Source: Candidatus Hermodarchaeota archaeon | GTDB lineage: Archaea > Asgardarchaeota > Thorarchaeia > Thorarchaeales > Thorarchaeaceae | Length of the DNA: 62,814 nt | Assembly (NCBI GenBank): GCA_048885865.1 | Contig: JBHLLF010000010.1 | Coordinates: 1-62,814 of the forward strand | Direction of reading: 5' to 3' | Part shown: one piece after another, positions 2,645 to 61,174 of the stretch | Layout of the letters: each line of letters opens with the position of its first letter | How positions within the stretch are numbered: position 1 is the first letter of the stretch | Translations under genes and position numbers: made by a program | Notes under the pieces: model-generated | The model's database searches: none | Seen by the model: the letters and a program-made list of their open reading frames with translations, nothing else | What the model was told of the DNA's origin: nothing

Positions 2645-2684
2645 ATGAATCGACCGCAGGGTCTATGCCATCGGCAGATGAAAT

Positions 2685-4004
2685 ATGCTCTTGTTCATGC
2701 CGCCTGCATTGATGGACAGATTTACCTGCATTTGTATTCTATTTGAGATGAATCGTATGAATCTCAATACTGTGTACGCTGTCCTAGCCACTATTCTGCT
2801 CATAGCTCCGATGACGCTAGGAACCGACATGGTAATTCATACATCAGCGGCTTACCCTGACTACTTTCCACTGGATGAATGGAGGACTTCGACACCAGAA
2901 CTTCAGAACATGGATCCCGCGATATTGCATAATATGCTGGAATACTATCAGACCAACAATGTCAGCATCGATGGCATTGTGATTGTGAAGAATGGTTATG
3001 TGATCATGGAAGAATATCCATCTGCCTACGGACCGAATTCAACTCATCAAATCTTCTCATGCACCAAAAGCATCACTTCAACGCTTTTCGGGATTGCGAT
3101 TGATTATGGTTACATAAATGGAGTAAACGAAAGCGTGCTTGATTTCTTCGATGACCGACCTATTGAAAATATGGACAGTCGAAAGAATTCAATAACCGTA
3201 AAGCACCTTCTTACAATGACTGCAGGCTTTGAATGGGCCGAACTATACCGAGAGAGTGAAAGCGACTTTGATCAGATGACTAGAACATCAGACTGGGTGC
3301 AATATGTTTTGGACCGTCCAATGGAATCTGAGCCCGGTCTGAAGTTTGTGTATAACTCGGGAGCATCACATCTTCTTTCTGCAATTCTGCAAATTGCCAC
3401 AGGAGTAACAATGTCAGAATTTGCCCGGACGCATCTATTCAGCCTCCTTGGAATTCAAGATTTCGAATGGTCTGAGGATTCCGAAGGGATTACAAATGGC
3501 GGCACACAGCTGAGACTCCGGCCTCTTGACATGGCCAAGATAGGCTATTTGCATCTTAGAAATGGTCAATGGGATGGAGAACAGATTCTATCGCCTGGAT
3601 GGATTGATGATGCAACATCACCTTTTGTAAATACGACATTGAGAGAAGCTCCTGGACTCATTGAAAGTATCGGATACGGTTACCAATGGTGGGTTCATTC
3701 AGAATTGGGTGCGTACTCTGCGTTTGGATGGGGCGGACAAAGCATCATAATAGTCCCTGAACATGATATCGTGGCAGTTGTAACTGCAAGAAGTTCTGAT
3801 CCTTCTATATACGCTAGCAGGATTCTTGCTCAATGGATTCTACCTGCAGCTGGAGAGGAAGTCAACGAGCCGAAATACTCTGATCCATTGGCGCAGTATA
3901 TTTTTGGTAGCTCTGCAGCACTATTCTTCAGCCTCATAATAATCACAATGCCATTACCTATTGCTCTGGTCCTTGTCAAAGAATTGCCTGAAGATTCCAC
4001 ATGA
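2685..4004 (+). CDS. Secreted, C-terminally anchored serine hydrolase (beta-lactamase/S12 family)
   Basis: SCTK (SxxK), LLTMTAG, YNS, YGYQWW; signal peptide and C-terminal TM; start likely downstream (MNRMN/MNLN). Confidence 0.85.
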   Translation: MLLFMPPALMDRFTCICILFEMNRMNLNTVYAVLATILLIAPMTLGTDMVIHTSAAYPDYFPLDEWRTSTPELQNMDPAILHNMLEYYQTNNVSIDGIVIVKNGYVIMEEYPSAYGPNSTHQIFSCTKSITSTLFGIAIDYGYINGVNESVLDFFDDRPIENMDSRKNSITVKHLLTMTAGFEWAELYRESESDFDQMTRTSDWVQYVLDRPMESEPGLKFVYNSGASHLLSAILQIATGVTMSEFARTHLFSLLGIQDFEWSEDSEGITNGGTQLRLRPLDMAKIGYLHLRNGQWDGEQILSPGWIDDATSPFVNTTLREAPGLIESIGYGYQWWVHSELGAYSAFGWGGQSIIIVPEHDIVAVVTARSSDPSIYASRILAQWILPAAGEEVNEPKYSDPLAQYIFGSSAALFFSLIIITMPLPIALVLVKELPEDST

Positions 4005-6982: not shown

Positions 6983-7975
6983 ATGGCTAGCCGAAAATCA
7001 CTAGGTACAAGACGCTATATCCTTCAACGCCTAGGACAGACAGTATTGATCCTATTCGTCATCATAACTGTGAATTTCTTCATATTTCGAATAATGCCCG
7101 GCGATCCAAGAGCGTCTCTCATTCGTGAAAACATGCCTCCCGAACTCCGGCAGGCAATAGTAAGTAGATTCGGGCTAGATAGACCTCTCCTGGAGCAATT
7201 TGTGCTCTATATTTCCAATCTCCTCCAAGGCGATTTGGGCTTCTCATTCTCACATTTCGGTGAACCTGTTATGGAAACTATTTTCGGACATAGGTTCATG
7301 AATACCTTTGTATTGATGGGAGCCTCGCTAATCATCTCAACCATTGTTGGTATGTTCTTCGGTGTCATTGCCGCAGCGCGAAGAGATAGTAAACTTGACA
7401 CAGGTTCAACAGTGTTCTTTCTCGTAGCCTACTCCATCCCGGTGTTCTGGATAGGCTTGTTGATGCTCCTGTTCTTCGGATTCTATTTCAATCTAATCCC
7501 CATCGCAGGGACCATAACCCGAGGCTATGTTCATGTCAATTTCCTGGACTTCATCCGTGATTACGCCTGGCATATGGCTGGTCCGTGCATTGTACTCACC
7601 CTGTCGTTTATAGGAGGCTTCTATCTGATAATGCGTGATACAGTCCTAGACGTATTTACTCAGGACTATATGTTGGCCGCGCGTGCGAAAGGGCTCAAAG
7701 AGCGCACTATTCTCTATGGTCATGCCATGCGCAATGCTATGCTGCCTATGGTTAGTGTAATCGCGGTAAACATTCCATATCTCATTGGCGGGGCAATTAT
7801 GACTGAGTTCGTGTTTAGCTGGGAAGGATTGGGATTGCTGACATATGACTCAGTTCTTTCAAAGGACTATCCAGTATTGCAGGGAATATTCCTATTCTAC
7901 ACTGCTGTGACTGTCATAGCAAACCTTGCTGCGGATCTCATCTATCTCTACCTGGATCCACGTATACGATATTAG
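6983..7975 (+). CDS. oppB: Peptide ABC permease OppB/DppB
   Basis: PGDP, FGLDRPL, ARAKGL EAA loop, HAMRNA, DYPVLQG, DPRIRY. Confidence 0.92.
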   Translation: MASRKSLGTRRYILQRLGQTVLILFVIITVNFFIFRIMPGDPRASLIRENMPPELRQAIVSRFGLDRPLLEQFVLYISNLLQGDLGFSFSHFGEPVMETIFGHRFMNTFVLMGASLIISTIVGMFFGVIAAARRDSKLDTGSTVFFLVAYSIPVFWIGLLMLLFFGFYFNLIPIAGTITRGYVHVNFLDFIRDYAWHMAGPCIVLTLSFIGGFYLIMRDTVLDVFTQDYMLAARAKGLKERTILYGHAMRNAMLPMVSVIAVNIPYLIGGAIMTEFVFSWEGLGLLTYDSVLSKDYPVLQGIFLFYTAVTVIANLAADLIYLYLDPRIRY

Positions 7976-29285: not shown

Positions 29286-30323
29286 CTATTTGCCCATTGT
29301 CAAAGCCATGATCGCCTTTTGAACATGTAGACGATTCTCCGCCACATCGTAGACAATTGACTTGGGGCTATCACAGACCTCATCAGTCACTTCTGCGTTT
29401 CTGTCCACAGGACCACAGTGAGTGAAGTAGGCATCATTAGTCTTCGCCATCCATCCCTTGGTTGTGATCCAGTCATCATATTTCGCGGCAATCTCAATCT
29501 CTTTGCTCTTGGCTGCATCAATACCGTGCTTGTTCATATCATCATAGAAGCCCGCTGTCATCCAATTGCGGGAATAGACGAAGTCAGCTCCCTCATATCC
29601 TTCCTCGAGATCATGGACAATCTCGAACCTGCCGCCAGCATCGTCAGCGTTCTCCTCACACCACTTCATGACCTCAGGATCCAAATCATAGCCTTTTGGA
29701 TAGGCAAGGGTGACATCCATTCCTAGGCGAGTGTTGATTAAGACACTCTCTTGGACTGAGCACCATGACCTCACCAGGGCGCCCTTTCCCCAGACTTGGA
29801 GGAATTTCTTGCCTTTGAGGTTCTTTCCTCCGTGCATCCTGTAGCCCATGACATCAGCTAGTCCTTGACAAGGGTGGAATCGATCATGAGCCATGCTAAT
29901 AATTGGAATGCTTGCATATTTCGCATATTCTTCAAGCATCTCATGACCCTGTCCATAGTACTCCAAGGCGGTCTCAAGAACTCTAATGCCAATACCCACT
30001 CCATAGCGACTCATGACCTCGGCTGCATCCTGAATGGTCTCTCCAGCAGTCTTGGCTGACTTGAGTCGCATAGACTTCGGCTCCAGGAATTGAGCGTGAC
30101 CACCCAGCTCTGAGGCTGCAGCCTCGAAAGATTGTCTGGTTCTTACTGAAGGATTATAGAAGAACATCATGAAAGTACGGCGGTTGAGACAATTATTCAT
30201 GGGATGGTCATATCTATTGGCCTTCATCTCAAATGATAGGTCAAGAGTCTTCTCGAGCTCCTCAACACTCCAGTCCTGTGTACATAGTAGGTCCTTTCCA
30301 TGTAGACTATTCATGGTACTCAC
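29286..30323 (-). CDS. Ornithine/N-acetylornithine carbamoyltransferase-family protein (divergent)
   Basis: SVRTRQSF, HPCQGLAD, HCGPVDR, AENRLHVQKA. Confidence 0.88.
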   Translation of the reverse strand: MSTMNSLHGKDLLCTQDWSVEELEKTLDLSFEMKANRYDHPMNNCLNRRTFMMFFYNPSVRTRQSFEAAASELGGHAQFLEPKSMRLKSAKTAGETIQDAAEVMSRYGVGIGIRVLETALEYYGQGHEMLEEYAKYASIPIISMAHDRFHPCQGLADVMGYRMHGGKNLKGKKFLQVWGKGALVRSWCSVQESVLINTRLGMDVTLAYPKGYDLDPEVMKWCEENADDAGGRFEIVHDLEEGYEGADFVYSRNWMTAGFYDDMNKHGIDAAKSKEIEIAAKYDDWITTKGWMAKTNDAYFTHCGPVDRNAEVTDEVCDSPKSIVYDVAENRLHVQKAIMALTMGK

Positions 30324-48027: not shown

Positions 48028-49251
48028 TTGGAGAATATCATCGAAATAAGAGGAGAAGGAATTCTTTTGCATCGCAAAATCACCGATGGAGTCTATTATG
48101 TTGGCGTTGATGATCATCACACCGCTCTCTTTGAGAACCTCTGGCCCCTCCCATTTGGTGTATCCTACAACTCATATCTGGTTGTAGATGAGAAGATTGC
48201 GATTATTGATACGGTGAAGAACATCTTCACCCAAGAATGGCTTGATAACATACGAGAGGTTGTAGACCCAGAAAAGATAGACTACATCATTTTGAATCAC
48301 ATGGAACCCGATCACACAGGTTCACTACCTAAGATAGCCGAGCTTGCAAAGAATGCTACTATTGTATTCACTCAGAAGGCTGTTGGAATGGAACAATCAT
48401 TCTACAATGTTGGTCTGAAAACCAAAATAGTGGAAGACTTGGAGGAACTCTCCCTCGGGAAGAAGACCCTAAAATTCGTGCACATTCAATTTGTCCACTG
48501 GCCAGAAACCATGGCCTCATATCTTGTGGAGGACGAGTTTCTCTTCAGCTGCGATGCATTCGGCTCATTCGGTGCCCTCAACGGAAAGCACTTCGATGAC
48601 GAGATTGACATGCGCATGATTGAATCCGAAAGCAAGCGATACCTCTCTACAATCATCACCTCCTACTTCAAGTTCGTCCAGCGGGCTGTCGAGAAGGTCA
48701 AGGGTCTCGGCGTGGGCATCAAGTTCATCGGACCAAGTCATGGACCAATCTACCGCAAAGACCCAATGTGGGTCATAGACCATTTTGATAAATGGAGCAG
48801 TCCTGAACTTGAGAAGTATGTCACTATCGTTTTTGGATCGATGTATGGCTATAACCTTCGTCTCGCCTATACACTCAAGAAAGAACTCGAAGAACTGGGC
48901 GTAGATGTCAAGATACACAATATCTCGTACAGCGGCATGGACATGGTCATCACTGATACCGTGCGTGCTGGTGCCATTGTACTAGGAACACCGACCTATG
49001 ATGCTTTTCCGTTCCCAAGGATGTGGGCATTTGTGAACGAGATGGAAGGTAAGCGCTACGAGAAAAGACCAATCGCACTCTTTGGAACCTATGGCTGGGG
49101 AGGTGGAGGTGTGCGCCGCCTCAGGAAGCAACTCGAGGAGAGCAAGTTTGAGATACTAGAGCCTGTAATCAGGTGCCGAGCTATGCCCACCAAGGAAGAA
49201 AGGCAGGCAATCAAGACACTAGCCAAGAGAATAGCAGAGACGGTCAAGTAG
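48028..49251 (+). CDS. fprA: Flavodiiron protein FprA (A-type flavoprotein)
   Basis: SYNSYL, HMEPDH, HWPE, SCDAFG, PSHG, flavodoxin motifs SMYG and FGTYGW. Confidence 0.93.
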   Translation: MENIIEIRGEGILLHRKITDGVYYVGVDDHHTALFENLWPLPFGVSYNSYLVVDEKIAIIDTVKNIFTQEWLDNIREVVDPEKIDYIILNHMEPDHTGSLPKIAELAKNATIVFTQKAVGMEQSFYNVGLKTKIVEDLEELSLGKKTLKFVHIQFVHWPETMASYLVEDEFLFSCDAFGSFGALNGKHFDDEIDMRMIESESKRYLSTIITSYFKFVQRAVEKVKGLGVGIKFIGPSHGPIYRKDPMWVIDHFDKWSSPELEKYVTIVFGSMYGYNLRLAYTLKKELEELGVDVKIHNISYSGMDMVITDTVRAGAIVLGTPTYDAFPFPRMWAFVNEMEGKRYEKRPIALFGTYGWGGGGVRRLRKQLEESKFEILEPVIRCRAMPTKEERQAIKTLAKRIAETVK

Positions 49252-49386
49252 CAGGTGTGCTCTTTTCCTCGAATGCATTCAACACTGTTTATGAACTGGC
49301 TGGTCCCTAAAGCAAGATTTTTAGTGACTGCACTGTTTGCTGGAGCAGTTGTTCAGCAAATGCAGTGATGTATACTGCATGATAGA

Positions 49387-49992
49387 ATGACGGAGGTAAG
49401 AGAGTTGAAACTCAAGGGAACCAAAACCGAAAAGAATCTCCTGACATCCTTCGCTGGCGAATCACAGGCACGCAATAGGTATACTATGGCATCCAAGACC
49501 GCCAAGAATGAGGGATATCCACATATTGCTGCAATCTTTCTAGAAACTGCAGGACACGAGTTGGAACATGCCAAGAGGTTCTTCAAGTACCTAAAACAAG
49601 GCGATGCAACAGAGGCGATCGAGGTTCAATGGACGTTCCCGACCAGTGGATCATACGAATCCACTGAGGAGAACCTCAGACACGCTGCGGCTGGGGAGAA
49701 GTACGAATATACTGAGATGTATCCTCAGTTTGCGGACATTGCCGAGGAAGAAGGCTTCAAGGAGATTGCTCATCAGTGGAGAATGATAGCCAAAGCTGAA
49801 TCTTGGCATCATGAGCGCTACATTGCTCTAGCAGAGCAGGTCAAGGATGGCTCCATCTTCAAGAAGAAAGAGAAAGTCAAGTGGCGCTGTGATAACTGTG
49901 GTTATATCCACGAGGGAGAAAGTCCTCCAGAAAAATGCCCGGCTTGTCAACATGACAAAGGTTACTTCATGTTGCATTTCGCAGAGTACTAG
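49387..49992 (+). CDS. rbr: Rubrerythrin
   Basis: AGESQARNRY, ELEHAK, GEKYE, ESWH, CDNCGY...CPAC. Confidence 0.95.
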   Translation: MTEVRELKLKGTKTEKNLLTSFAGESQARNRYTMASKTAKNEGYPHIAAIFLETAGHELEHAKRFFKYLKQGDATEAIEVQWTFPTSGSYESTEENLRHAAAGEKYEYTEMYPQFADIAEEEGFKEIAHQWRMIAKAESWHHERYIALAEQVKDGSIFKKKEKVKWRCDNCGYIHEGESPPEKCPACQHDKGYFMLHFAEY

Positions 49993-50007
49993 TTCTACTT
50001 AGTCAAA

Positions 50008-50045
50008 GCCTTGGCTCGTAAAGGGCCGAGGCGCTTCCTATTTTT
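50008..50045 (+). terminator. Hairpin plus T tract after rbr
   Basis: GCCTTGGCTC-GTAAA-GGGCCGAGGC followed by TATTTTT. Confidence 0.55.
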
Positions 50046-50060
50046 AAACACTTATTGAGT

Positions 50061-50702
50061 TTACGTAATAGCTTTTTTGCCCCTTATGAAAGTCCACCAA
50101 AGGGTCAAAGCAATTGTGAATGCAATGAATCCGATATATAGGAATGTAAACAAAAGTCCATAGCCATGCCAATATGGCCATCCGCTCCGCCAAAAGAAAG
50201 GGAGGATTAGCACCAAAACTTCCATCCACATTAGATATAGTCCACAAATGCAGCAGTCATCATATCGACCCTTCATTGAATCGACCCGAGGCCTCAAATA
50301 TTGAGGGACTTCAAGTGATTTGCCCGAGCTAATGGCTAGACTACTCCCTTCATAGGTACGAATTGATCCATTCGAACTCAAGCCCTCCCTAACTCGTTCC
50401 ATCAAATACTCGGCCTGAACTAGGCTACCTTTGTACCTCGCTACTGCAACGCCATTCGGAGAGTCATAGTCTACACGAAGATAAGCACCAATCATTCCGG
50501 TGGTTTCTACATACAGTCCCTGAATTTTCTCTAGCTCGATTGAATGGTGCAGATGGCGGTTATCTTGGAAAATCAATCTCCGCGATGTAACTACAAGCTC
50601 TCCTTTCCACTTCCTGTTATATTCGTCGTAGAAATCACATTTCTCCCTAGCGAGCTCTTGCTCGCTTGAATCAAGACCGTCAAGGTCTGGCACTCGAATC
50701 AC
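50061..50702 (-). CDS. PH-like (GRAM/bPH) domain protein with C-terminal TM helices
   Basis: GELVVTSRRLIF...SIELEKIQ pattern, terminal helix, 2 TM helices. Confidence 0.65.
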   Translation of the reverse strand: MIRVPDLDGLDSSEQELAREKCDFYDEYNRKWKGELVVTSRRLIFQDNRHLHHSIELEKIQGLYVETTGMIGAYLRVDYDSPNGVAVARYKGSLVQAEYLMERVREGLSSNGSIRTYEGSSLAISSGKSLEVPQYLRPRVDSMKGRYDDCCICGLYLMWMEVLVLILPFFWRSGWPYWHGYGLLFTFLYIGFIAFTIALTLWWTFIRGKKAIT

Positions 50703-51109
50703 TCAGATTATCTTCTATGCGGTTTGATTTATCTCTTGGCCTACTACTTGCATAGCAGCAAAATGGCCATTGATCTGGTTGAGAGGAATTCTCAAGAAGT
50801 AAGAAATGAGCGGCCAGCAGCTGCTGTCAATGTTAGGGGGTTTGAGTTTTTTTAGGGGAGAGTGTAAAAAAGATTGTACCTGCCAGCTCGCTCTAAGAAT
50901 TGCAGAGACACTCCTCCTTTTGTAATGGTGTAAGACACGGTCAAATATACCGAGATTCTCTGAATGTGATGCGGTTTTAGTATTTGAACTCATACTCATT
51001 TTGTCCTAGTGTAAGAATGCGCATTGACTAATATTCGACGGCTGAACCTCACTGAATTGTCTGGAAGCTGTAGAAGGAAATTCTGCATAATTCCACATGA
51101 CATAATGAC

Positions 51110-51232
51110 ATGAAGACAATTAGTTCAAAGCCCTTTACACCTCCTCCGGAGCCTTTTGGCCTGAAACCCTTCACTCCACCCCCAGAGCCGTTTAGCTGGA
51201 AACCATTTACACCGCCCCCGGAACCATTCTAA
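51110..51232 (+). CDS. 40-aa microprotein with three KPFTPPPEPF repeats (absent from ORF track)
   Basis: MKTISS-KPFTPPPEPF-GL-KPFTPPPEPF-SW-KPFTPPPEPF-stop; all differences between repeats are synonymous. Confidence 0.85.
   Translation: MKTISSKPFTPPPEPFGLKPFTPPPEPFSWKPFTPPPEPF
51128..51229 (+). repeat. Three 30-nt direct repeats with 36-nt period (coding repeat)
   Basis: Units at 51128-51157, 51164-51193 and 51200-51229. Confidence 0.9.
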
Positions 51233-51240
51233 ACAATTCT

Positions 51241-51283
51241 CTTGAGATTCTGCTTCATGCAGAATTCTCAAGCCTCTATTTTT
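51241..51283 (+). terminator. Hairpin plus T tract after the microprotein gene
   Basis: CTTGAGATTCTGC-TTCAT-GCAGAATTCTCAAG followed by CCTCTATTTTT. Confidence 0.6.
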
Positions 51284-51314
51284 AGGCAGCATAGATAAAG
51301 CATATACGAAGCAA

Positions 51315-53357
51315 TTGAAAATGGTCTTCTCGGAGATTCGTGCTTTGAATGATCTCAGGAAGCTCGCCGTATCGATTCTGGCAGACGGAAAAGCTAATCC
51401 TGCATATCTTAACTATGACAACGGCATACCAATTCTATCTGATATTCAAAGCAAGGGAAAACAATCTACAACGGATGTAGAGCATATTCTGATTCAAGAA
51501 GAAATTATTGTAGATCACCGGGGAATCCGAGAAAAGCGGAAACTGTTGACACCCGCAGAAGTGGTGATAGCACCAATTTCAAGGAAGCAGATGCAATACA
51601 TTCTTGATGGAAGTAGGCCAGAACCTCTTTACCCACCCTCTAGCCAAGGATGGTTTAGCAGGGTTGTGGATGGAGGACGGAGAGCTATTTTTCTTTTGCA
51701 TGACCTGGCAGGCAATGATGGTTTCTGGCTCTCAATTGTTGATACCAGGAATAATGAGTATCTTGAAGCACACACAATTCTTCCATTCGAGAAAGGAGTT
51801 CTAGATGTTTCAGACGAAACTGCGGAACATGAATCAATGTTTGTAAAGCTGTCAGAAAGCACCAGGGCTGAAGTAGAGAGTTGGATGAATAGCATTCTGG
51901 ATGGACCGCCGCCTGAATGGAATGAGCTGGCCCAAATAACAAGTGATGTGTATGTCCCAGGTTTGACTATAGGCGAGAACATGAGGGATACGCTTGAGTT
52001 GTTGGTGCCAAGAATTTACAGGCCGGAAATCAGAAATCAGGTACTGGCTTTCCTAGGAGCCATAGTTAAGGGACATCATCCTGACGAAGATCCGGTGACC
52101 TACTTCGAGAAATTTCACTCGAAACAAGTTCTGAGGAATCTCTTAATGGGGCATTTATACTGTGATGTAAATGACGAGATTCCTCCATCATATGTAAGAA
52201 TTATGCAAGAAGGCGCCTTGCAGCGATTAGGCTCACCTGACAGAGCGGTTAGCGAAACTTGGTCTGATCCTTGGCATCAAACATACTACAAGGTGATGGA
52301 TGGTTTTCCAAAGCTATTCGATACAGCTGTGAAGTATTCAGCAAAATTGAATGCCGCGAAGAGAATTACACTTGGCCTACCAATTTCTGAATCCCAAGCT
52401 GCCAAATCGAAAAAGAAGTGGATTGAAAGATTCAAACTAATGGCAGTTGGCATTATGCTTCGTGCACAACTAAGACCAAATTCAGTAGGATTGAAGAGGA
52501 TTGCCTATACGGGCCATGCTCACCAATGGCCATCAGTCCATATGAAGTGGTCAGCCAAGATTGAAGGCGCTGGCCATCGAGAACCCAGCGTGCAAATAAT
52601 GGAGATGCCCAACGAGAGCTTGGAAGCTACCCTTCATGCTCGACCAAATCTTATGATTGTCGACTGGACTGGAGCTGCCGTCAATGAGCACCTTTATGAT
52701 GAAACCTCAAGGACATGGAGGGTATCAGTCAGTAGAATCATGGGCGGGCTCAGCGGGAGAAGATCAATCAGACGGCTAGGGAATGAATTTGGTGAGTGGA
52801 GAGGCTCAGAAATACACAAGCCCACTCAGACTTGGGCAAAGGCACTTGATGCAACAGCAAATCTGTCCTATTTGGCAGACCTTGGTCAGGACAAATATAT
52901 CGAGTATATGGGCCTAAGCCGTTCACAGCTTCTCTCTTCCCTGAAAGAAATGAATGAGAAAGGAGTCATTAGCATATTGTATGTTCCAAATGTCCTGGAT
53001 TTGATGATGATTGCGGTAATTGCTCAGGGAAAAGCAGGCAACATTTGTTCCCTGGCTAGAGCATTCATGAAGCACTCACCGACTGCAACGGTTCATCTCG
53101 CCCAAAAGGGAAAATGGCTATTAGTGCTCTCCAGACAGCCGACATCAACAGCACACCGTTTGATAGCGACGCTACCCGAAGAATCTGCAAAGGTGGGGAT
53201 AGCCCTTAGATGCAACAGACTTACATCTTTTCGCAGCTACACACGGGGTTTCTACAGACGACTTTTGAGAGATGATGGCACTTGGAAGGATGACGTGACT
53301 CAGATGCTGAGCCAAATCAGGCTGCCATATCACGAGCAAGTGTCTGGAAAAGATTAG
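51315..53357 (+). CDS. Large hypothetical protein with possible C-terminal wHTH and Lrp/AsnC-like domain
   Basis: MGLSRSQLLSSLKEMNEKGVI (wHTH-like) followed by an alternating beta/alpha segment. Confidence 0.7.
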   Translation: MKMVFSEIRALNDLRKLAVSILADGKANPAYLNYDNGIPILSDIQSKGKQSTTDVEHILIQEEIIVDHRGIREKRKLLTPAEVVIAPISRKQMQYILDGSRPEPLYPPSSQGWFSRVVDGGRRAIFLLHDLAGNDGFWLSIVDTRNNEYLEAHTILPFEKGVLDVSDETAEHESMFVKLSESTRAEVESWMNSILDGPPPEWNELAQITSDVYVPGLTIGENMRDTLELLVPRIYRPEIRNQVLAFLGAIVKGHHPDEDPVTYFEKFHSKQVLRNLLMGHLYCDVNDEIPPSYVRIMQEGALQRLGSPDRAVSETWSDPWHQTYYKVMDGFPKLFDTAVKYSAKLNAAKRITLGLPISESQAAKSKKKWIERFKLMAVGIMLRAQLRPNSVGLKRIAYTGHAHQWPSVHMKWSAKIEGAGHREPSVQIMEMPNESLEATLHARPNLMIVDWTGAAVNEHLYDETSRTWRVSVSRIMGGLSGRRSIRRLGNEFGEWRGSEIHKPTQTWAKALDATANLSYLADLGQDKYIEYMGLSRSQLLSSLKEMNEKGVISILYVPNVLDLMMIAVIAQGKAGNICSLARAFMKHSPTATVHLAQKGKWLLVLSRQPTSTAHRLIATLPEESAKVGIALRCNRLTSFRSYTRGFYRRLLRDDGTWKDDVTQMLSQIRLPYHEQVSGKD

Positions 53358-56300
53358 CCCTCCCACTCTCCCGGAAGGCTTCCAACAATTCTACTGACTC
53401 TTCTTCTTGCCAAAACAGCAATAGCTGCGACAATCCCAAGGCCTCCAATCCAGGGGGTGGTTCCTTCATCCATAGGCAAGGATGGTGTGGCACTGCTTGC
53501 CAATAAAGGCAACGCTGAACTCATACTCTCAACCACTGGCAATCCATTGACAACAATGTCAACTATGTACTCGCCCTTAAGTGCAACATAGAACTCGATG
53601 GCTGAATAGCCAACTTGATGCGCAATCAAGGACTGTGTGGCAACCATCATTCCCTGGGGATCAAAGATTGAAATCTCCAAGCCACCTGTCCACTCCCTAT
53701 CAACACCAAGAATACTGTAACTCATATTGAGTGTAGTATTCAGGCCGATTTGAACAGGGATTAGGGGCATCACTTCTAGCAGCAGTAGTGGGGTTACTGA
53801 TAGTGAGAATCTATTCGAGGTGGGTGCATAGATATCTGTCCCATTGAACTGCACTTCAACTGTAAGATTCCCAGCCAAAAGACCTTCGAGTATAGCATCC
53901 ACTCCGCCACGAGTACCAGTAAAGATAGGTAGCTCAAGCATCAACTGTTCATCCATCCAGACACAAATCCTGAGAGATGCATCCGAAATCCGAAAGACAC
54001 CTGAAGAAAGGGTAATAGAGAGAGGTATTGGTTGTCCGAACTCCATAGTTGAGGGATGATCTACATCAACATGGCTCATGTATCGAATAAGAACTGTTAT
54101 GACCTGACTCGTGGCTTGCCAAAAGTCTGTGCCTTCAAACATGAGTGTCAATGTGTAGTTTCCTGTAAAGCTGGGGCTCCACGTTATGACGATGCCATCT
54201 GCACTTACTGGATAAGCAGTTCTTGTGGTGAGGGGTGAACCAAGAATCTCTCTTCCACTTGGCGAGTATAGACTTGCATAGACAATGGCTCCATCAGCAA
54301 CATCACCAATGCTATCCACGAGCGTGAAGCTGATCTCATGATCTTCATCAATAATCCCAGAGAATCTTTCATCTAAGACTAGGAGATCTGTCCATGCCGT
54401 AACGTTGAACTGAACTTGAGCAGTGCAGCCAACCCGCATTGTATTATCAAGCACCACCAAGCTAAGTGTATATAATCCAACTTCGAGTCCTTCTAATGAG
54501 ATACTCATTTCGGTATAAGATGATTGGAGCCGTTCAAACAGGTCCACAATCCCACTAGGTCCAATCAGGTCTATTGATGTACTCAACTCATTCAAATCAA
54601 TTACAGAGCCTTGCTCATCAATAACTGATGCAATTAGATATGAATTCGAGGAGCGCTCAATAGAAGGGGTCACACTAAATGTGATGTTTGTGGTGCCATA
54701 TACCCAGACTCTTAGAGCTGAGTTAGATGCATGATAATGCGTCGTTCCGGCAAAGGATAGGAGAAGAGTGTAGTTGCCCATCCTGTCTAGAGTGATATTC
54801 AGTACAAGAGGCTCCGGACTGGTTTGGACAACACTATCAGTCATCATGAGTCCGATTTGATCATGATATGCATAGTAATCGATTGTGAATCCTTCTAGAG
54901 GACTTCCGCCAGAGTCCGTTAGTAGAACTAAGATTGATGCAGGGACGATTCCAGCTATGATATCATCGGTCGAAATGATAGACGCGTGGATTTCTGTGCT
55001 GTATCTCACACTAACCTCAGTAGAACCTGTGGCTGGAAGGTAAACTCCTAGTCCATCAAAGATTGCAGATATCGACCAAAGACCCTCGTCATCTATCTGG
55101 ACACTCCAATAGGCATGACCTGAGCTGTCTGTCACAACAGGCATCGGTCCGATTGTTGAACCTCCTGGCCCGTTCAATACAATCGTCATATCTCTGCCCA
55201 CCATAGGAGACCCCCGATAATCTGACAGGAGCACTGAGATTTCAAGCATGTCACCTACGTCAAGGAAGGCTTCTGACACACTTACGGTAACACTGCTTTG
55301 TGAATACACAGTGTGAAAGGTATCATCCGTAAAGCTATGCACAGATGTTGCACCTGAACAAGAGAGGTGAACCGAATAGAGACCAGTCATGGTGGGTACA
55401 AAACTCACGATTGCCAGTCCATTGCTAGTTGTGACAGTGATTGAATTGGACCAATAGCCAAGCCTGACTGGATCGCCAAGAGGATCATCGAGTGACACGA
55501 CTACATCTAGATTCTCAACAGGTATGCCTAGCTGGTCAATGATATTGAGGGTGATATTGACATCTTCTCCTGCTCTAGCTGGAACCGGGGCAAGTGTGGT
55601 AGCTATGGTACATGTAGTCATTGCATTGAGCTGCTCCTGGGTGTCACCACCAATCAAGAACTGGTCGGCGGTCGGAGATGCTCGAATAGTAAGAACACCA
55701 TGCGAATCATCGGCATAGTAAAACGCCTCTGCAATCCCACTAGCATTGGTTGCTAGGTCTGCTGACCAGACAGGCACCAAATCGAGACCCAACACTTCGA
55801 AATGAATAACAACTCCGCTCAGTGTCCCCTCAGTCTGGAGAACATACTGGAGGCTCGCAGTGTTGAACATATTCACCGATGACGGTTCGAGAAACAGATT
55901 TGCGCTGACAAGCTCCAAGACTGACACAGTAGACCCAGTCGAGTTTGTATAGTAATAGGGGTCTCCAGCATGAAGGAGAGTTATTGATGCCAGACCTCTA
56001 TCTTCTGGATCCCAATGTACTATGAGCAAACCATCTACTGACTCGACCTCAGTTTCAAATACAATGATGCTGTTTTGTTCGACTGAGAGGAGGAGTGTTC
56101 TTCCAACTACATTCTGTTGATATGCATCAGTGATGCTTACGTAGATCTCAAGCGTTTCTCCTAGCATGCAGGAAGGACTATGACTCAACTGCATGCTAGG
56201 AGTCATATAGACTCTCTGTAGAGATGATGCTGTGGCTGATGAATTAAGGTATTCACCGGCATAGGTTGCATTGATGAGGAAGTCGCCAACAGAATGGAAG

Positions 56301-59300
56301 TTATGGGCAAGTGTGCATTTCCCATCAGCCCCTGTCATCCTCTCGGCTGAATCAATGATTGTGCCATTGGACATTCGGACTTCGATTATGACTTGGGCAC
56401 CATTCAGAGGTACACCGCTCCAATCAGTCAAGGCGACTACAATGCCAATTTGAGTTCCTTGTTCAATAGGAAGACCCGGAGTGGTTAGAGTGATGTCCGT
56501 GGTTCCGAGAATGACATCTGTTGAAGCGGCACTTGCAAACAGCAACCAACCTTGTGCGACAACAGTCACAGAAGTAGATAGTATCCCAGGCACAGATACT
56601 TGAATCATATGAGCAATCGTGCCATCACCCTGAGTTGTATTCGTGACATCAAGCAATAGCTGACCATTGATGGTGAAGATCGTGCGGACTGATACGTCGC
56701 TGACTCCCAGTCCGTGATAATCACTTAGAGAAACAATCACGTTAACCAGTGAAGGAGACTCTTGGCCTAGAGGCACCAAGACATCAATACTTGGCTGTTC
56801 ATAGACCTCTTCGGTCTGAGATGCTAAAGCTGCATCATACCAAGACTGCTGTCCTGAGGCGGCGCTAATGCGGTTCTGCCCTCGAAAGAGAGGGGTCCAG
56901 GTAATCTGAAAGAGGCCTCCAGATGTAGTCCCGGACTCTTGGATCTGAATGACACCCCGAGGATCGCGAACGGATACAGTTACAGAAAGCCCATTAATAG
57001 GAGATCCCAGGTGATCCTCAGCTCTGACCTCAATCAGGGTCTCAACTCCAACCTCTGATGGTTGAGCAATTGAAAGCGCTAGGGTGACAGGAACCCACAA
57101 GGTGAAGCCGCCAGAATCGATCGCACTTCCACGAGAGCCTGTACCTGCAAACTCAGCTTCAAGTCGATACGAACCTGCAGAATCACCAACCCAAGAATCT
57201 TCCACATATCCAGTCGTGTTTGAATCAAGAGTGTATTCAGCCACCACTGTGGATGGAAGGAGTATGACTCTTAGAGTAATTGATTCGCCAGAAATGGGAT
57301 TAGAGAATGAGTCCAGCAGATAAGCCCAAATGGCCCAAGTTGTCCCTACAGAATTATCACCGCTAATTCCCCCGACTATGATTGTGCTATTTGACCATGC
57401 AGTGATTACCTTTGAGTTCATTGATGTTCGAAGATAGTCAGTAGCTGCAAATACAATGTCGAAATCATAGAGCCCATTCTCATCGATTGTCACTTGCACT
57501 GACACATGCCCAGTTGAGTTTGTAGTCATGTCTGTGTCAATTAGAATGGAGAAGGAAGGGCTTGTCACCGTGACATGCACGAGATATCCCGCGAGAGGAG
57601 TTCCGCCAGAGGTTTCTAGCCGGGCTTCAATAGAAACCTCACTATATTGTTCATAGACCCCTTTGGTCAACCAAGTCAGAATCGTGTCCTCATAGACATG
57701 AATCAGACCGGATGATTCGCATCCAACAAGGGGACCATTTCCCAAGAAGCTGATGGTGTAACTGAAGTTGCCTCGTTGAGAGGGAGTCCAGTGAAACACG
57801 CTACCTCCAATCGAGGAAACTCCTTGCGTGGTGTAGACTATTTGACCAAGCTCATCAAGGATTGTAATGGTAGTTTCCTGAGATGCAATATCAGTTCCAT
57901 TTGAGGAGTAATGGAGTGACCAGTCGATGTTTATTTGCTGATCCGCTGTTGCAGTTGTGAATGACGGGGATATTAGATAGGTGCTGACTGGAGCTGATAT
58001 GTCCACTGCATCACGGAGTATAAGCGTCCCGCAATCCTTTCGCTCTAATGTCACTGTCAGATTGTAAGTTCCAGTGGCAAAACCCGATGACGGAACTTGG
58101 AGAGCAAATGGAGATGAATCCTGATACGACCATTGCTGGTATGCGGGCGGGTCTCCCAATCGTACTGTGATGTTAGATGTTCCAGCATCAAGCTCAGGAG
58201 CAATTATCCAAGACACGGTACCATTAATGAAACTCCCCGCAGACACATTTGGAGTATCCAGGGTAAGAGTTCCTTCTAATTCGCCTCGAACTTCGACTGT
58301 TGACATTGCGAACGCACGAGAAAGACTCCAGTCGGTCACCATGGCGTATATTTCTGCGTGCCCGAGGAACTTTGTATCACCAGGGATATCTATTCTCAAT
58401 GTATCACTATTTTCTACATTAGTGAACTTGGTCCATTCATCAAATGCGTAGACTAAGACACTATGACTACTGACGGACGAGCTTACTCCCACATCAATAT
58501 ACAGACTCGATCCAAGACTAACTGTGGCATCAGTTGATATTGAGATTGAAGATCCTGGTACATCAATCAGAAGAGGTCTCATTCCGAGGATTGACACCAT
58601 CTCAAGAGACTCTGCGGTATAGACAGGCTGCCACTGATCAGTCGCATTCAGCCAACCATTTGCATAGGGAGTAGGTCCCAATGCGTTCAATACTTCTGAT
58701 GCCTCGATGCTCTCGAGGTTCACGTCAAAACCTGAAGCGTTGAGCAGCGCAAGGGTTGCCACATCGCAGCTCAGTGCATAGATGTTGTTGTATTGGATAC
58801 GCGAGTTGATAGAGGAAGATATCTCCACAGCCATTGTGGTGTCTACGATGTTGAGTCGCACTGCGGCCCTAGTGCATAGCCAATCGATTGCAGATTGTTC
58901 TCCAGCATAGGGCTTAATGGTCCAGCCGCTCATAGACCACTGTCCACTACTATAATCATTCAGCATTGCAGACTCAAGCGAGGATCTGTATGGAATCGAA
59001 TCTAGGGAGTCCATTAGGTAAAGCGCTTCCACTGCAGCCACACTATGCTGGATGTGCGCAGTTCCGATGAACATAGCAGGTCTAAAGTGGCCCGTCACAA
59101 ATTGAGACAAGGAAATGTAGTTCAGAGCATCAGCCATAACTTCTGACGACGGCACAACTCCTTGAGCCGACGCAGTTGCCACTCCGAAATATTGGGTCCA
59201 GACACTTTTGGTACGGTACTGATTCACACCATATTCTGGAGCAATAACAGCTGTGAAATTATTCCACCAAGGATATTGAGTCCATTGAGAAAACAAGTCG

Positions 59301-61174
59301 AGATACTGAGCCTGTAGTTTTTCATCCACAACTCCTGCTGCATGGTTCATTCTTGAAATGGTGGCGAGCCAGTAGTTCCACATGAGGGAGGGTACCGGGT
59401 CCATTAGTTCAAAACCGATATTTGTCTCAATCGCAATCAGATAGCTTTTGAGCTCTTGCGAAGCAGAAATAGAGGTCTCTGACATCTCATTCAATGCAAC
59501 AGCAACGCAATAGGACTCCTTTGTCTTTGCTACTATGTCACCGTCCTTTGCCTCCAGACCAAAACCTCCAGAATCGAGCTGATTGGATTCAAGCCAGCTC
59601 AGGCCATTTGTCCTATTCTCTGAACTCAAAGTTCCCATAAGTGCCATAGCAGTCAATGCTGAACTAGTCCCAATGGTAATCTCCTCTCCCGGACCGACTG
59701 TGTTACGGAATGAGCCATCACCTATTGCAGTCCGTGTGACTATCCAAGATGTCAGCTTCACTGGGTCATTGTGTGTAGTTCCCAGGATATCAAGAGCTTG
59801 AACGTAGTTTGAGGCGTATTGATTTGTTGGGCTGGTACTGGCCGGGTTAGATCCAATAGACCCCCACAAGTCAGGATCTGAAGTCTTTCCACCATCAATT
59901 ACACATGATCGAAGCCAGGACTCAAGGGCTACTGTGTCAATGGTTCCTAGAGATCCTGCTGATGCCAATGCTTCTGTAACGTGGTAGGTGGTTGTGATAT
60001 GGTTTTCAAAATCTCCGTCCATGCCTTGTCTCGAGGCGAGGTAGGCGACTATCTCTGTAACAGTAAACTGTGGGGATAATCCCATAATCGATAATACCCA
60101 GAGACCTTGAGCAGTGCTCTTGCATCCCACGGAACCATCAGTTTTGGCTGTGAGGAAGCCTGTTTCTGCTCCGAAGTCTACAGCCAAACTATTGAGTATC
60201 GCGAGCACAAGTCCTTGCCTGGCACTCTTCCACAATGCCCACTCTGAAGCACCCATGAGGGCTACTGCCATCTGCACCGCGTAGTAGGTTCCAGCCATTG
60301 TTGGTTCATGAGCATAACTATACCCGCCTGGGAGGAGAGTTGTACCATCAGACTGGGCGGCAGCTAAAGTCTGAGAAACTGCATTCTCTCTGAGTGCTAT
60401 TGCATATGCTAGTGTGTTGACTACGAGTCCTCGACCCTCTGTTGTAAGAAGTAGAGGGTTCTCCGGCGCAAACAGGAATGCTTCTAGTGGCCAAGAATCA
60501 TATCTCAGAGACGCAAGGGATGAAGGTCCAGATCCAGTCAAATCAACGAGACGGGAATTCTCAGTCTGGATGGGATCATCCGGGAGGAGGATGGATGATT
60601 CAGTTGTCAGTGAAGAGCCAAGCGATAGTGGGACGGGACTACTGAGGTAGATCGCTCCTTCCAGCCCGGGTGTGGTACTAAGTTGATAATTGGAAAGAGC
60701 GATCCCTGAGGGCGGACCTCTTCCCCTCAGCAAATGCAAAAGCCAAGCTGCGCGTCCAGTAAGGACTATGCTGACATCCTCCCCTATCAACAGGTCTACT
60801 AGAGCAGCAGGTACATGACTTGCATCATCTGCGCCAAGACTTCCATCAACGAGAATCAACGGTGCAGCGTGAATTATTGTTGGTTCAACCAGCAAATCAG
60901 AAACAGTGACGACACTTGCTGCAACACCTGCGGACTGCAGGACCTGAACCCATGTTGAACCCCTCGCGGGAATAGAATGGCCAGGTAACTCGAGAACAAT
61001 GACTGGACTCCAATCTATGATGACGCCATCATCTGCAGAAACAATATGCGCTGGATTCACATCTAAGTGTGCGGCATCCTGCAGCAATGGGCTATATCCA
61101 CTGCTCAAGACCAAAGGCGAAGTCCATGCGATTGCAATTATGATTATGCCTAACACCAGTCTTCTATGCCTCAA
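53354..61174 (-). CDS. Giant cell-surface protein: prenyltransferase/squalene-cyclase-type alpha-barrel repeats, Ig-like stalk, C-terminal TM
   Basis: Signal peptide; RQGMDGDF, GDGSFRN, NQLDSGGFG; repeated TxxxGxA...GxY strands; TM followed by ARRR. Confidence 0.85.
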   Translation of the reverse strand: MRHRRLVLGIIIIAIAWTSPLVLSSGYSPLLQDAAHLDVNPAHIVSADDGVIIDWSPVIVLELPGHSIPARGSTWVQVLQSAGVAASVVTVSDLLVEPTIIHAAPLILVDGSLGADDASHVPAALVDLLIGEDVSIVLTGRAAWLLHLLRGRGPPSGIALSNYQLSTTPGLEGAIYLSSPVPLSLGSSLTTESSILLPDDPIQTENSRLVDLTGSGPSSLASLRYDSWPLEAFLFAPENPLLLTTEGRGLVVNTLAYAIALRENAVSQTLAAAQSDGTTLLPGGYSYAHEPTMAGTYYAVQMAVALMGASEWALWKSARQGLVLAILNSLAVDFGAETGFLTAKTDGSVGCKSTAQGLWVLSIMGLSPQFTVTEIVAYLASRQGMDGDFENHITTTYHVTEALASAGSLGTIDTVALESWLRSCVIDGGKTSDPDLWGSIGSNPASTSPTNQYASNYVQALDILGTTHNDPVKLTSWIVTRTAIGDGSFRNTVGPGEEITIGTSSALTAMALMGTLSSENRTNGLSWLESNQLDSGGFGLEAKDGDIVAKTKESYCVAVALNEMSETSISASQELKSYLIAIETNIGFELMDPVPSLMWNYWLATISRMNHAAGVVDEKLQAQYLDLFSQWTQYPWWNNFTAVIAPEYGVNQYRTKSVWTQYFGVATASAQGVVPSSEVMADALNYISLSQFVTGHFRPAMFIGTAHIQHSVAAVEALYLMDSLDSIPYRSSLESAMLNDYSSGQWSMSGWTIKPYAGEQSAIDWLCTRAAVRLNIVDTTMAVEISSSINSRIQYNNIYALSCDVATLALLNASGFDVNLESIEASEVLNALGPTPYANGWLNATDQWQPVYTAESLEMVSILGMRPLLIDVPGSSISISTDATVSLGSSLYIDVGVSSSVSSHSVLVYAFDEWTKFTNVENSDTLRIDIPGDTKFLGHAEIYAMVTDWSLSRAFAMSTVEVRGELEGTLTLDTPNVSAGSFINGTVSWIIAPELDAGTSNITVRLGDPPAYQQWSYQDSSPFALQVPSSGFATGTYNLTVTLERKDCGTLILRDAVDISAPVSTYLISPSFTTATADQQINIDWSLHYSSNGTDIASQETTITILDELGQIVYTTQGVSSIGGSVFHWTPSQRGNFSYTISFLGNGPLVGCESSGLIHVYEDTILTWLTKGVYEQYSEVSIEARLETSGGTPLAGYLVHVTVTSPSFSILIDTDMTTNSTGHVSVQVTIDENGLYDFDIVFAATDYLRTSMNSKVITAWSNSTIIVGGISGDNSVGTTWAIWAYLLDSFSNPISGESITLRVILLPSTVVAEYTLDSNTTGYVEDSWVGDSAGSYRLEAEFAGTGSRGSAIDSGGFTLWVPVTLALSIAQPSEVGVETLIEVRAEDHLGSPINGLSVTVSVRDPRGVIQIQESGTTSGGLFQITWTPLFRGQNRISAASGQQSWYDAALASQTEEVYEQPSIDVLVPLGQESPSLVNVIVSLSDYHGLGVSDVSVRTIFTINGQLLLDVTNTTQGDGTIAHMIQVSVPGILSTSVTVVAQGWLLFASAASTDVILGTTDITLTTPGLPIEQGTQIGIVVALTDWSGVPLNGAQVIIEVRMSNGTIIDSAERMTGADGKCTLAHNFHSVGDFLINATYAGEYLNSSATASSLQRVYMTPSMQLSHSPSCMLGETLEIYVSITDAYQQNVVGRTLLLSVEQNSIIVFETEVESVDGLLIVHWDPEDRGLASITLLHAGDPYYYTNSTGSTVSVLELVSANLFLEPSSVNMFNTASLQYVLQTEGTLSGVVIHFEVLGLDLVPVWSADLATNASGIAEAFYYADDSHGVLTIRASPTADQFLIGGDTQEQLNAMTTCTIATTLAPVPARAGEDVNITLNIIDQLGIPVENLDVVVSLDDPLGDPVRLGYWSNSITVTTSNGLAIVSFVPTMTGLYSVHLSCSGATSVHSFTDDTFHTVYSQSSVTVSVSEAFLDVGDMLEISVLLSDYRGSPMVGRDMTIVLNGPGGSTIGPMPVVTDSSGHAYWSVQIDDEGLWSISAIFDGLGVYLPATGSTEVSVRYSTEIHASIISTDDIIAGIVPASILVLLTDSGGSPLEGFTIDYYAYHDQIGLMMTDSVVQTSPEPLVLNITLDRMGNYTLLLSFAGTTHYHASNSALRVWVYGTTNITFSVTPSIERSSNSYLIASVIDEQGSVIDLNELSTSIDLIGPSGIVDLFERLQSSYTEMSISLEGLEVGLYTLSLVVLDNTMRVGCTAQVQFNVTAWTDLLVLDERFSGIIDEDHEISFTLVDSIGDVADGAIVYASLYSPSGREILGSPLTTRTAYPVSADGIVITWSPSFTGNYTLTLMFEGTDFWQATSQVITVLIRYMSHVDVDHPSTMEFGQPIPLSITLSSGVFRISDASLRICVWMDEQLMLELPIFTGTRGGVDAILEGLLAGNLTVEVQFNGTDIYAPTSNRFSLSVTPLLLLEVMPLIPVQIGLNTTLNMSYSILGVDREWTGGLEISIFDPQGMMVATQSLIAHQVGYSAIEFYVALKGEYIVDIVVNGLPVVESMSSALPLLASSATPSLPMDEGTTPWIGGLGIVAAIAVLARRRVSRIVGSLPGEWEG

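Follow-up and report, generated by a model that had tools for sequence, protein, structure and literature searches.

The question raised by this locus is whether an open reading frame (ORF) of only 40 codons encodes a peptide and, if it does, what role that peptide plays. The ORF, hereafter the microORF, lies at 51110-51232 on the forward strand of the window, the 62,814-nucleotide stretch of a Candidatus Hermodarchaeota archaeon contig (JBHLLF010000010.1) analyzed here, and runs from an ATG at 51110 to a TAA at 51230-51232. An initial reading made from the letters alone, without database searches (the sequence-only reading), described it as a leader followed by repeated cores, and translation reproduces that description exactly: the six-residue leader MKTISS, beginning at 51110, precedes three identical copies of the decapeptide KPFTPPPEPF at 51128-51157, 51164-51193, and 51200-51229, the last of which is followed immediately by the stop codon, while the two 2-residue spacers are GL and SW and 15 of the 40 residues are proline. 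Alignment of the cores likewise returned the pairwise differences given in that reading, 7, 7, and 8 nucleotides, every one of them third-position and synonymous, with spacers that vary. When distinct codons are counted at each position, the cores record at least 12 independent synonymous events and no non-synonymous ones; with 22 of the 90 single-base changes possible in one core being synonymous, the chance that all 12 would be so is ~0.244^12, or ~4e-8, under a uniform mutation model. In the spacers, by contrast, 3 of 6 nucleotides differ between GL and SW, and each difference replaces an amino acid. The synonymous sites of the cores are essentially saturated, and saturation without a core replacement, next to spacers that have diverged, implies that the repeats are old and that the peptide sequence is the thing conserved. 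Judged by this codon pattern, it is the peptide, and not the DNA, that is conserved at the microORF.

The same signature is found across the genus. A word-index search for a called protein of 22-70 residues matching the 40-mer found none among 5.8 billion proteins, and homologs were instead recovered by a six-frame search of related genomes (designated here by G numbers, with G000 being the window's own metagenome-assembled genome [MAG] of 3.58 Mb, 87% complete with 5.3% contamination, in which the window lies on contig C10). Downstream of the microORF lies a gene for a 670-residue protein, hereafter the partner, and a microORF stands directly upstream, on the same strand, of 17 of the 18 orthologs and paralogs of the partner in the genus. 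Nine of these loci, termed class A, occupy the syntenic site, in the order rubrerythrin, microORF, and large partner gene. Their cores are KPFTPPPEPF in three copies in G000, KPFTPPPEPW in three copies in G015, NPFTPPPEPW and TPHTPPPEPW in two copies each in G014 and G001, and PGEIPHPEPW in two DNA-identical copies in G003; G016 has two copies that are different PPEPW cores, G002 and G008 carry a single core each (RPIAPPPEPF and GPTSPHPEPW, respectively), and G010 has at least five copies of RPYSPGPEPF in an array broken by a 100-N assembly gap. The G010 array (contig C100, ~7180-7460) consists of RPYSPGPEPF-GL units of near-identical DNA, and the scaffold gap hides their true number; such repeat arrays break assemblies.

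With the exception of G016 and its two different cores, the copies within a gene differ across the genus by 55 nucleotides in total and by no replacement at all. The proposed functional unit in the genus is the decapeptide [KRNT]-P-[FYHI]-[TSA]-P-x-P-E-P-[FW]. The positions that vary between close species (K/R/N/T, F/Y/H/I, T/S/A, P/G, and F/W) are identical among the old copies within a gene, and the spacers vary both within and between genes (GL/SW, GV/NL, NTD, NK, TFGL, and DS) behind leaders of 5-11 residues. A paralog clade of the large gene, ~35% identical and including a gene on contig C5 of G000, has a microORF of 15 residues in front of it, and the last eleven of these, HPGRPF[SY]PEPW, are almost invariant in seven species even as nearly every codon varies synonymously. 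The six-frame search thus recovered intact syntenic homologs with one to at least five cores, rather than the frameshifted or non-synonymously drifting repeats that would have spoken against the sequence-only reading, and the window ORF can be taken as coding because its homologs have intact frames and the same synonymous-only pattern. In the partner tree, the clade {G000, G014, (G015, (G010, G002))} carries 3, 2, 3, at least 5, and 1 cores in that order, which indicates that copy number turns over quickly. On this tree W is the ancestral core end, with F arising in G000 and in G010 plus G002. A concerted F/W change across the three cores of the window was considered and is unnecessary, as the partner tree allows the change from W to F to have preceded the triplication in the G000 lineage.

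For the taxonomic family as a whole, a profile of the partner was searched against 86 genomes and found it in 75 of them, in all 16 genera and often in two copies, from which 60 upstream regions of the other 15 genera were taken. An upstream microORF of 12-66 residues is present at 44 of these 60 partner loci, and what the family shares is its end, [ED]-P-[WF] (rarely G/L/T/Q-P-[WF]) located 0-5 residues before the stop. For comparison, the window's genome contains 27 ORFs of 8-90 residues ending EP[WF]x0-3 in 7.15 Mb of strand, so that 0.004 would be expected per 1.1-kb region, and the enrichment over chance is more than 100-fold. Tandem cores have arisen independently in at least eight further lineages. 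Among the examples, TPQEPPVEPW, TPTDKPPEPW, DPSDPLTEPF, and DPGNPEGEPF are each present twice, a PPLSPTIPDDPF unit is present three times, and in G019 two units alternate; the tandem copies in these lineages differ by 29 nucleotides, all synonymous, which brings the total for genus and family (55 + 29) to 84 synonymous versus 0 non-synonymous differences. In one subclade of genus g5, the whole peptide of 36-40 residues is conserved, with several fixed positions.

These data bear directly on the most skeptical explanation, namely that a DNA or RNA repeat happens to be open in this frame and yields no product. The ORF is indeed short and unannotated, but the 84 to 0 count, intact frames at more than 60 loci in 16 genera, conserved Shine-Dalgarno (SD) sequences, and the enrichment just given effectively refute this idea. 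The tiny genes ending in [ED]-P-[WF] constitute a previously undescribed peptide family. That the peptide itself is under selection and that no described family resembles it were both proposed from the window alone, and both proposals stand: homologs occur family-wide with synonymous-only drift in their repeats, the protein search gave no match, and literature searches turned up no description of such a peptide family.

How the microORF would be expressed can be judged from the signals around it. In front of it lies a strongly conserved non-coding region at 50805-51109 (~300 nt, forward strand). Its alignment over 7-9 syntenic loci reveals extended invariant blocks and indels of 1 nt but lacks codon periodicity, and the region is more conserved than the flanking coding regions; it is single-copy in G000, and an Rfam scan of 49900-51500 returned only a chance-level match (E 0.49). 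A long-range GAGCGG...CCGCTC pairing and a CAGC-loop-GCTG hairpin were also noted within it. The region is a candidate promoter, operator, or 5' leader, and could be either an operator/promoter region or a structured leader RNA. Behind the microORF, a 13-bp bulged hairpin at 51241-51272 begins 9 nt past the stop (minimum free energy [MFE] -23.4 kcal/mol, z -2.3) and is followed by a T5 run at 51279-51283 that resembles an archaeal oligo-T terminator; a simple terminator scan missed this hairpin, as the T-run starts 7 nt after the stem. T-runs also occur in the orthologous loci, and a hairpin of differing sequence with a T-run is found at the same place in 9 of 9 class A loci. Across the family, a helix of at least 7 bp follows the microORF in 53 of 55 loci, compared with 184 of 300 control ORF ends, and the mean MFE is -20.3 versus -15.5 kcal/mol. 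Family-wide, the stop and the hairpin are 1 to 54 nt apart, much as in the controls; a fixed tight spacing holds in 6 of the 9 class A loci and was abandoned as a family-wide feature.

Between the T-run and the partner gene, a box resembling a TFB recognition element (BRE) and TATA element, AAAG-CATATA-CGAAGC, lies at 51297-51312 and is conserved in five species, with the consensus (G)ACAAAG[AC]ATATACGA[AG]GC. Its reading frame relative to the partner ORF differs among species, which marks it as non-coding. It is followed by an SD-like GGAG at 51332-51335, 9 nt before the start codon, and the resulting GGAG-N9-[TG]TG pattern (TTG or GTG) is aligned in 9 of 9 class A loci. The partner gene itself occupies 51345-53357 on the forward strand when read from TTG 51345, the residue at which the public records begin; the open frame would also allow TTG 51315 or ATG 51321, but the start assigned there by a mechanical ORF call is probably wrong, given that the GGAG-N9 pattern and the public records favor TTG 51345. 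The microORF is thus co-oriented with the partner and 112 nt upstream of it, with the hairpin, T5 run, BRE/TATA-like box, and SD in between, a layout that would provide a terminator for the small gene and then a promoter, SD, and start of its own for the partner. A fusion of the microORF into the partner, or read-through between them, was dismissed, as the frames differ and stops separate them. Two minus-strand ORFs that overlap the region, 50715-50999 (94 residues) and 51125-51292 (55 residues), look spurious and are not constrained: the first overlaps the conserved non-coding region with its 1-nt indels, and the second is the reverse frame of proline codons whose variation is third-position in the forward frame.

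The partner belongs to no Pfam or NCBIfam family, as judged by scans that included a Pfam scan of each of 22 members. There are 161 representatives among 1.84 billion proteins, its homologs in public records are labeled as 'Candidatus Thorarchaeota archaeon' or 'Promethearchaeota' MAGs, and a metagenome scan added only 10 more loci, all of the same groups. Between species whose adjacent rubrerythrins are 87-95% identical, the partners are only 57-62% identical, and the partner therefore evolves fast. An AlphaFold model built from the 22-sequence alignment is confident (pLDDT 85.8, pTM 0.84). It opens with a beta domain (residues 15-153), continues with a helical domain (155-376), and ends in two modules of ferredoxin-like plus helical type (378-660). 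Residues 341-668 find their best structural match in the siroheme decarboxylase NirDL, a fused tandem Lrp/AsnC-like enzyme (4czc; Foldseek E 8.5e-6; VIA Z 9.3 with 255 aligned residues at an rmsd of 5.6), lower structural matches of the C-terminal half are to ACT/RAM domains and to the AsnC-family proteins PF0864, PH0061, and ST1022, and neighbors in the Atlas are archaeal multi-module HTH_AsnC-type proteins at TM 0.4-0.55, which serve as a lead only. Based on the model, the C-terminal half is predicted to contain two Lrp/AsnC-like modules, each a winged helix-turn-helix (wHTH) joined to a RAM domain. Modeled alone, the N-terminal half gave a poor structure (pLDDT 62.8), and its ~340 residues have no clear fold match, the best (Z 5.3) being among small KOW- or PH-like beta similarities only. 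The partner is a Thorarchaeota-specific protein with a novel N-terminal half. A complex prediction from the partner alignment and the 40-mer gave an ipSAE of 0.01 and carries no weight either way.

The nature of the partner and of the family motif also bears on the suggestion, made in the sequence-only reading, that the cores bind proline-binding domains multivalently, with Homer EVH1 (PPxxF) and FPPPP as the motifs named, and on its broader form, in which the target would be any eukaryote-like domain that recognizes proline (EVH1/Homer PPxxF, profilin, GYF, SH3, or WW) in the cytoskeleton or trafficking machinery of Asgard archaea. PPEPF in the window core fits PPxxF, and the host is indeed an Asgard archaeon. 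However, the family retains neither PPxxF nor FPPPP; only [ED]-P-[WF] is invariant in it, and many members end in VEPW, IEPW, NEPW, DGPW, or TPW, and the conserved linkage is with an Lrp/AsnC-like protein rather than a proline-recognition domain. Pfam models for WH1 (PF00568), profilin, and GYF had no match in the 87%-complete genome, a weak result given that the control genomes were silent too. We therefore disfavor this role and regard it as very improbable.

The window's genome holds four microORFs of this type, and two of them lie away from any partner gene or its paralog. Besides the class A microORF and that of the paralog clade on C5, there is a class B microORF at 29572-29652 on the minus strand of C5, in which a degenerate core accompanies a perfect KPFTPPPEPF; behind it come a hairpin and a convergent tRNA-Met. 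Class B is syntenic in G000, G002, and G010, and in each it has one core that is protein-identical to that genome's own class A core, from which it differs by 5, 5, and 1-2 synonymous changes, respectively; G014 also has a second microORF copy with no partner gene after it. The fourth, class C, encodes 14 residues ending in RPYSPAPEPW (C18, 18003-18047, forward; 1503-1547 in locus-local coordinates), with a GGAGG SD in front, and stands 38 nt upstream of an 82-residue gene (locus-local 1586-1834) that is followed by a major facilitator superfamily (MFS) transporter gene (2105-3613). This microORF was found in 8 of 8 genomes with a readable upstream region, and the 82-aa/MFS pair in 13 of 13 genus genomes checked. 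The 82-residue protein has no Pfam family, and its conservation is 90-96% for the five closest genomes and 59-84% for more distant ones; a relationship to the partner was considered and set aside, as hhalign found none.

Two observations concern the surroundings of the copies on C5. The gene convergent with the class B microORF codes for a C-terminal portion of an Opp/Dpp-type peptide-binding protein (SBP_bac_5) that has a membrane anchor and a linker rich in Thr. Such a neighbor is notable for a peptide gene but may be a coincidence. In front of the paralogous large gene (49617-51608, minus strand), a stretch of ~35 nt (GCATGGATAATCTAATATTCGACCCAAAG) is nucleotide-invariant in seven species, yet its ATG is out of frame with the gene in G000, G015, and G002 owing to a 1-nt indel, indicating a conserved DNA or RNA element (TATA-like) and not an N-terminus.

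Taken together, the reading that we consider best, at a rough probability of 45%, is that the microORF specifies a separately transcribed, trans-acting peptide that is an effector or partner of the adjacent protein. The microORF would be its own short transcription unit, with the conserved region in front and the hairpin and T-run behind, and once translated its product would act in trans on the protein encoded immediately downstream. Its most likely role would be that of an effector ligand bound by a regulator-like partner, in which a RAM pocket of the amino-acid type would take up the aromatic end of the core. Identical cores in tandem would increase the dose should the peptide be cut and the valency should it stay whole. 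Several lines of evidence lead us to this reading: the pairing of microORF and partner spans the family well beyond the chance expectation; the partner is fast-evolving and has the predicted ligand-sensing tandem Lrp/AsnC fold; and microORF copies sit away from any partner gene in class B and as the second copy of G014. In addition, the transcription signals look separate, with the distance from stop to hairpin not being fixed, and translation signals precede the microORFs, namely an invariant GGTGAG 8-9 nt before the ATG in the paralog clade and the GGAGG of class C. Finally, cores that are identical within a gene yet differ between sister species fit a lineage-specific partner better than a conserved ribosome and its tunnel.

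A number of points weigh against a trans-acting effector. The HTH_AsnC-type and AsnC_trans_reg Pfam models miss the partner at E <= 1 in all 22 members, and it is from the predicted fold that the regulator role derives, just as the separate terminator, promoter, SD, and start are read from sequence. The peptide has no signal sequence, so that an extracellular role would require a dedicated exporter. The identity of class A and class B cores could be the result of gene conversion (in G010 they differ by 1-2 nt), and the remaining cores of class B are degenerate. As in known arrest peptides, conservation peaks at the three final residues, next to the stop codon, and the same type of microORF heads the unrelated 82-aa/MFS operon, a modular use that would be expected of a cis-regulatory leader.

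The last two of these points are the core of the main rival, a cis-acting leader or arrest peptide, which we consider rather unlikely. Here, the ribosome would pause or fail to terminate at E-P-[WF]-stop, perhaps in dependence on aIF5A, a metabolite, or a ribosome-targeting compound, and the pause would control read-through of the hairpin and T-run or downstream translation, with extra cores serving as extra pause sites. The C-terminal motif stands at the stop throughout the family, at the head of the partner genes the microORF is always upstream and co-oriented with a hairpin and T-run after it, and a single microORF type precedes three gene sets (partner orthologs, partner paralogs, and 82-aa + MFS) in the manner of a regulon. 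Bacterial leader peptides that control efflux pumps are a known paradigm. There is also a eukaryotic precedent for a pause at such a terminus, as the AZIN1 upstream ORF ending in PPW-stop pauses ribosomes in an eIF5A-dependent manner (review PMC9788402). Against these arguments, the microORF is not always in cis: class B in G000, G002, and G010 and the second copy in G014 have no partner gene downstream, and in G000 class B runs toward the convergent tRNA-Met. The stretch from the terminator to the partner gene contains a promoter-like box and an SD, the stop-to-hairpin distance is unconstrained, and some subclades conserve their entire peptide of 36-40 residues. Nor would the ribosomal tunnel explain why old tandem copies are identical at positions that vary freely between species. 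The specific form in which the sequence-only reading had proposed a leader, a stall at PPP relieved by aIF5A, does not survive the comparison, since PPP is not conserved, the paralog clade and most other genera lacking it; what is left of that proposal is an arrest at the terminal EP[WF].

A third possibility is that the 40-mer is a precursor cut into identical decapeptides, the part already raised in the sequence-only reading, and that these are possibly modified, and exported, for example by an MFS transporter, as in peptides of the RiPP (peptide synthesized on the ribosome and modified after translation), pheromone, or archaeocin kind, with the adjacent protein being a maturase, immunity factor, or receptor. 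Variable spacers between identical cores, a core number that runs from one to at least five with rapid turnover, and species-specific cores would all fit, as would a strong terminator behind the small gene, as in many precursor genes, additional precursor-like copies elsewhere in the genome, and the family member that is the first gene of a conserved MFS transporter module. This possibility is nonetheless distinctly doubtful. No known RiPP maturase, protease, or RiPP recognition element (RRE) family was found by Pfam and NCBIfam in the 22 partner members or in the 94- and 213-residue neighbors; a signal peptide is absent, and at 5-11 residues the leader is very short. The spacers are not conserved cleavage sites, so that no common flanking recognition sequence is apparent, and most family members are single-core peptides of just 12-16 residues. 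The interchange of F and W speaks against indole-ring chemistry, and the predicted partner fold is regulator-like rather than enzyme-like, yet NirDL shows that such a fold can be an enzyme. A variant that extends the trans-acting peptide to export would make this the first gene-encoded archaeal peptide signaling or effector system, in which proline-rich, lineage-specific ('pherotype'-like) EP[WF] peptides are each sensed by fast-evolving, cytosolic Lrp/AsnC-like receptors, exported via the peptide/82-aa/MFS module, and amplified in dose by tandem cores; we deem it unlikely, if less so than the multi-core precursor.

Several further genes flank this pair in the window. Directly upstream, at 48028-49992 on the forward strand, a protein of flavodiiron type, combining an ODP beta-lactamase fold with flavodoxin, is encoded together with the rubrerythrin, which is the conserved left neighbor of the module in the genus, and an oxidative-stress context is possible. 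A 213-residue protein encoded at 50061-50702 on the minus strand has a weak Vps36/GLUE-like N-terminus (E 0.0028, below the cut-off) and C-terminal hydrophobic helices; its gene separates rubrerythrin and the module in G000 and G002 only, and elsewhere rubrerythrin is ~350 nt from the microORF. Convergent with the partner, a gene at 53354-61174 on the minus strand encodes a 2606-residue protein with matches to Big_1, MG2/MG4, filamin, and the prenyltransferase alpha-alpha-toroid, suggestive of an alpha-2-macroglobulin-like architecture.

The implications of this locus extend beyond the window. Asgard archaea are the closest prokaryotic relatives of eukaryotes, and to our knowledge, archaeal small proteins are almost unexplored and none have been characterized in Asgard archaea. 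Here, a peptide family invisible to gene callers has been defined by sequence alone; it bears an exceptionally clear mark of peptide-level selection and is tied in the genome to a constant partner from a novel protein family. Any of the mechanisms considered would if true be a first for the Archaea, be it a peptide that serves an Lrp/AsnC-like regulator as effector, an arrest peptide, or a multi-core peptide that is exported. The family also demonstrates that a tandem-core architecture can arise repeatedly in a prokaryotic micropeptide, and it offers a natural series of one to at least five cores for questions on the role of copy number.

Comparison with known systems helps to place the pair. 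Like TnaC and the uCC form of AZIN1 (PPW-stop), the microORF is a short upstream ORF with a conserved Pro/Trp C-terminus at the stop and a terminator-like element before the main gene, but its motif is E-P-[WF] and not PPW or a terminal Pro, it has copies without a downstream gene, and promoter-like and SD signals precede the main gene. We know of no tandem identical modules in arrest peptides and of no archaeal arrest peptide. Multi-core precursors, such as cyanobactin PatE, plant orbitides and cyclotides, fungal dikaritins, and yeast alpha-factor, similarly contain several identical or similar cores in varying copy number; in those systems, however, the sequences that flank the cores for recognition or cleavage are conserved and a protease or maturase is encoded or identified, whereas here the spacers vary, the leader has 5-11 residues, and no known maturase family was found. 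Lrp/AsnC ('feast/famine') regulators and the NirDL/AhbAB siroheme decarboxylases share with the partner the predicted tandem wHTH + RAM arrangement (~341-668), while the partner differs in lacking an AsnC-type Pfam or NCBIfam match and in its extra ~340-residue N-terminal beta and helical domains, and the effectors known for those proteins are siroheme or free amino acids and not peptides encoded by a gene. RRNPP cassettes of Firmicutes and phages (Phr/Rap, SHP/Rgg, and AimP/AimR) resemble this system in pairing a tiny gene with the gene of a cytosolic HTH protein, in their species-specific peptides and fast-evolving partner, and in having the active part at the C-terminal end of the peptide. 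Tandem identical cores are no feature of RRNPP, though, and the partner here has no TPR (by Pfam match or in the model of beta, helical, and two wHTH-RAM parts) and is unrelated in sequence and fold; the host is archaeal, and no signal peptide is visible in the 6-residue leader. As to the secretion and Opp-mediated re-import of RRNPP pro-peptides, what is seen here is the MFS module with class C and the Opp/Dpp-type SBP gene next to class B. In the case of Bacillus ComX/ComQ/ComP, ComX requires prenylation of its Trp by ComQ and a membrane kinase receptor, whereas the present family has Phe in place of Trp in several lineages, lacks an adjacent ComQ-like gene, and has a cytosolic partner. What the present system has in common with ComX is a short C-terminal active peptide with an invariant aromatic residue 0-3 residues from its end, and a peptide that diverges between close strains in step with the neighboring genes.

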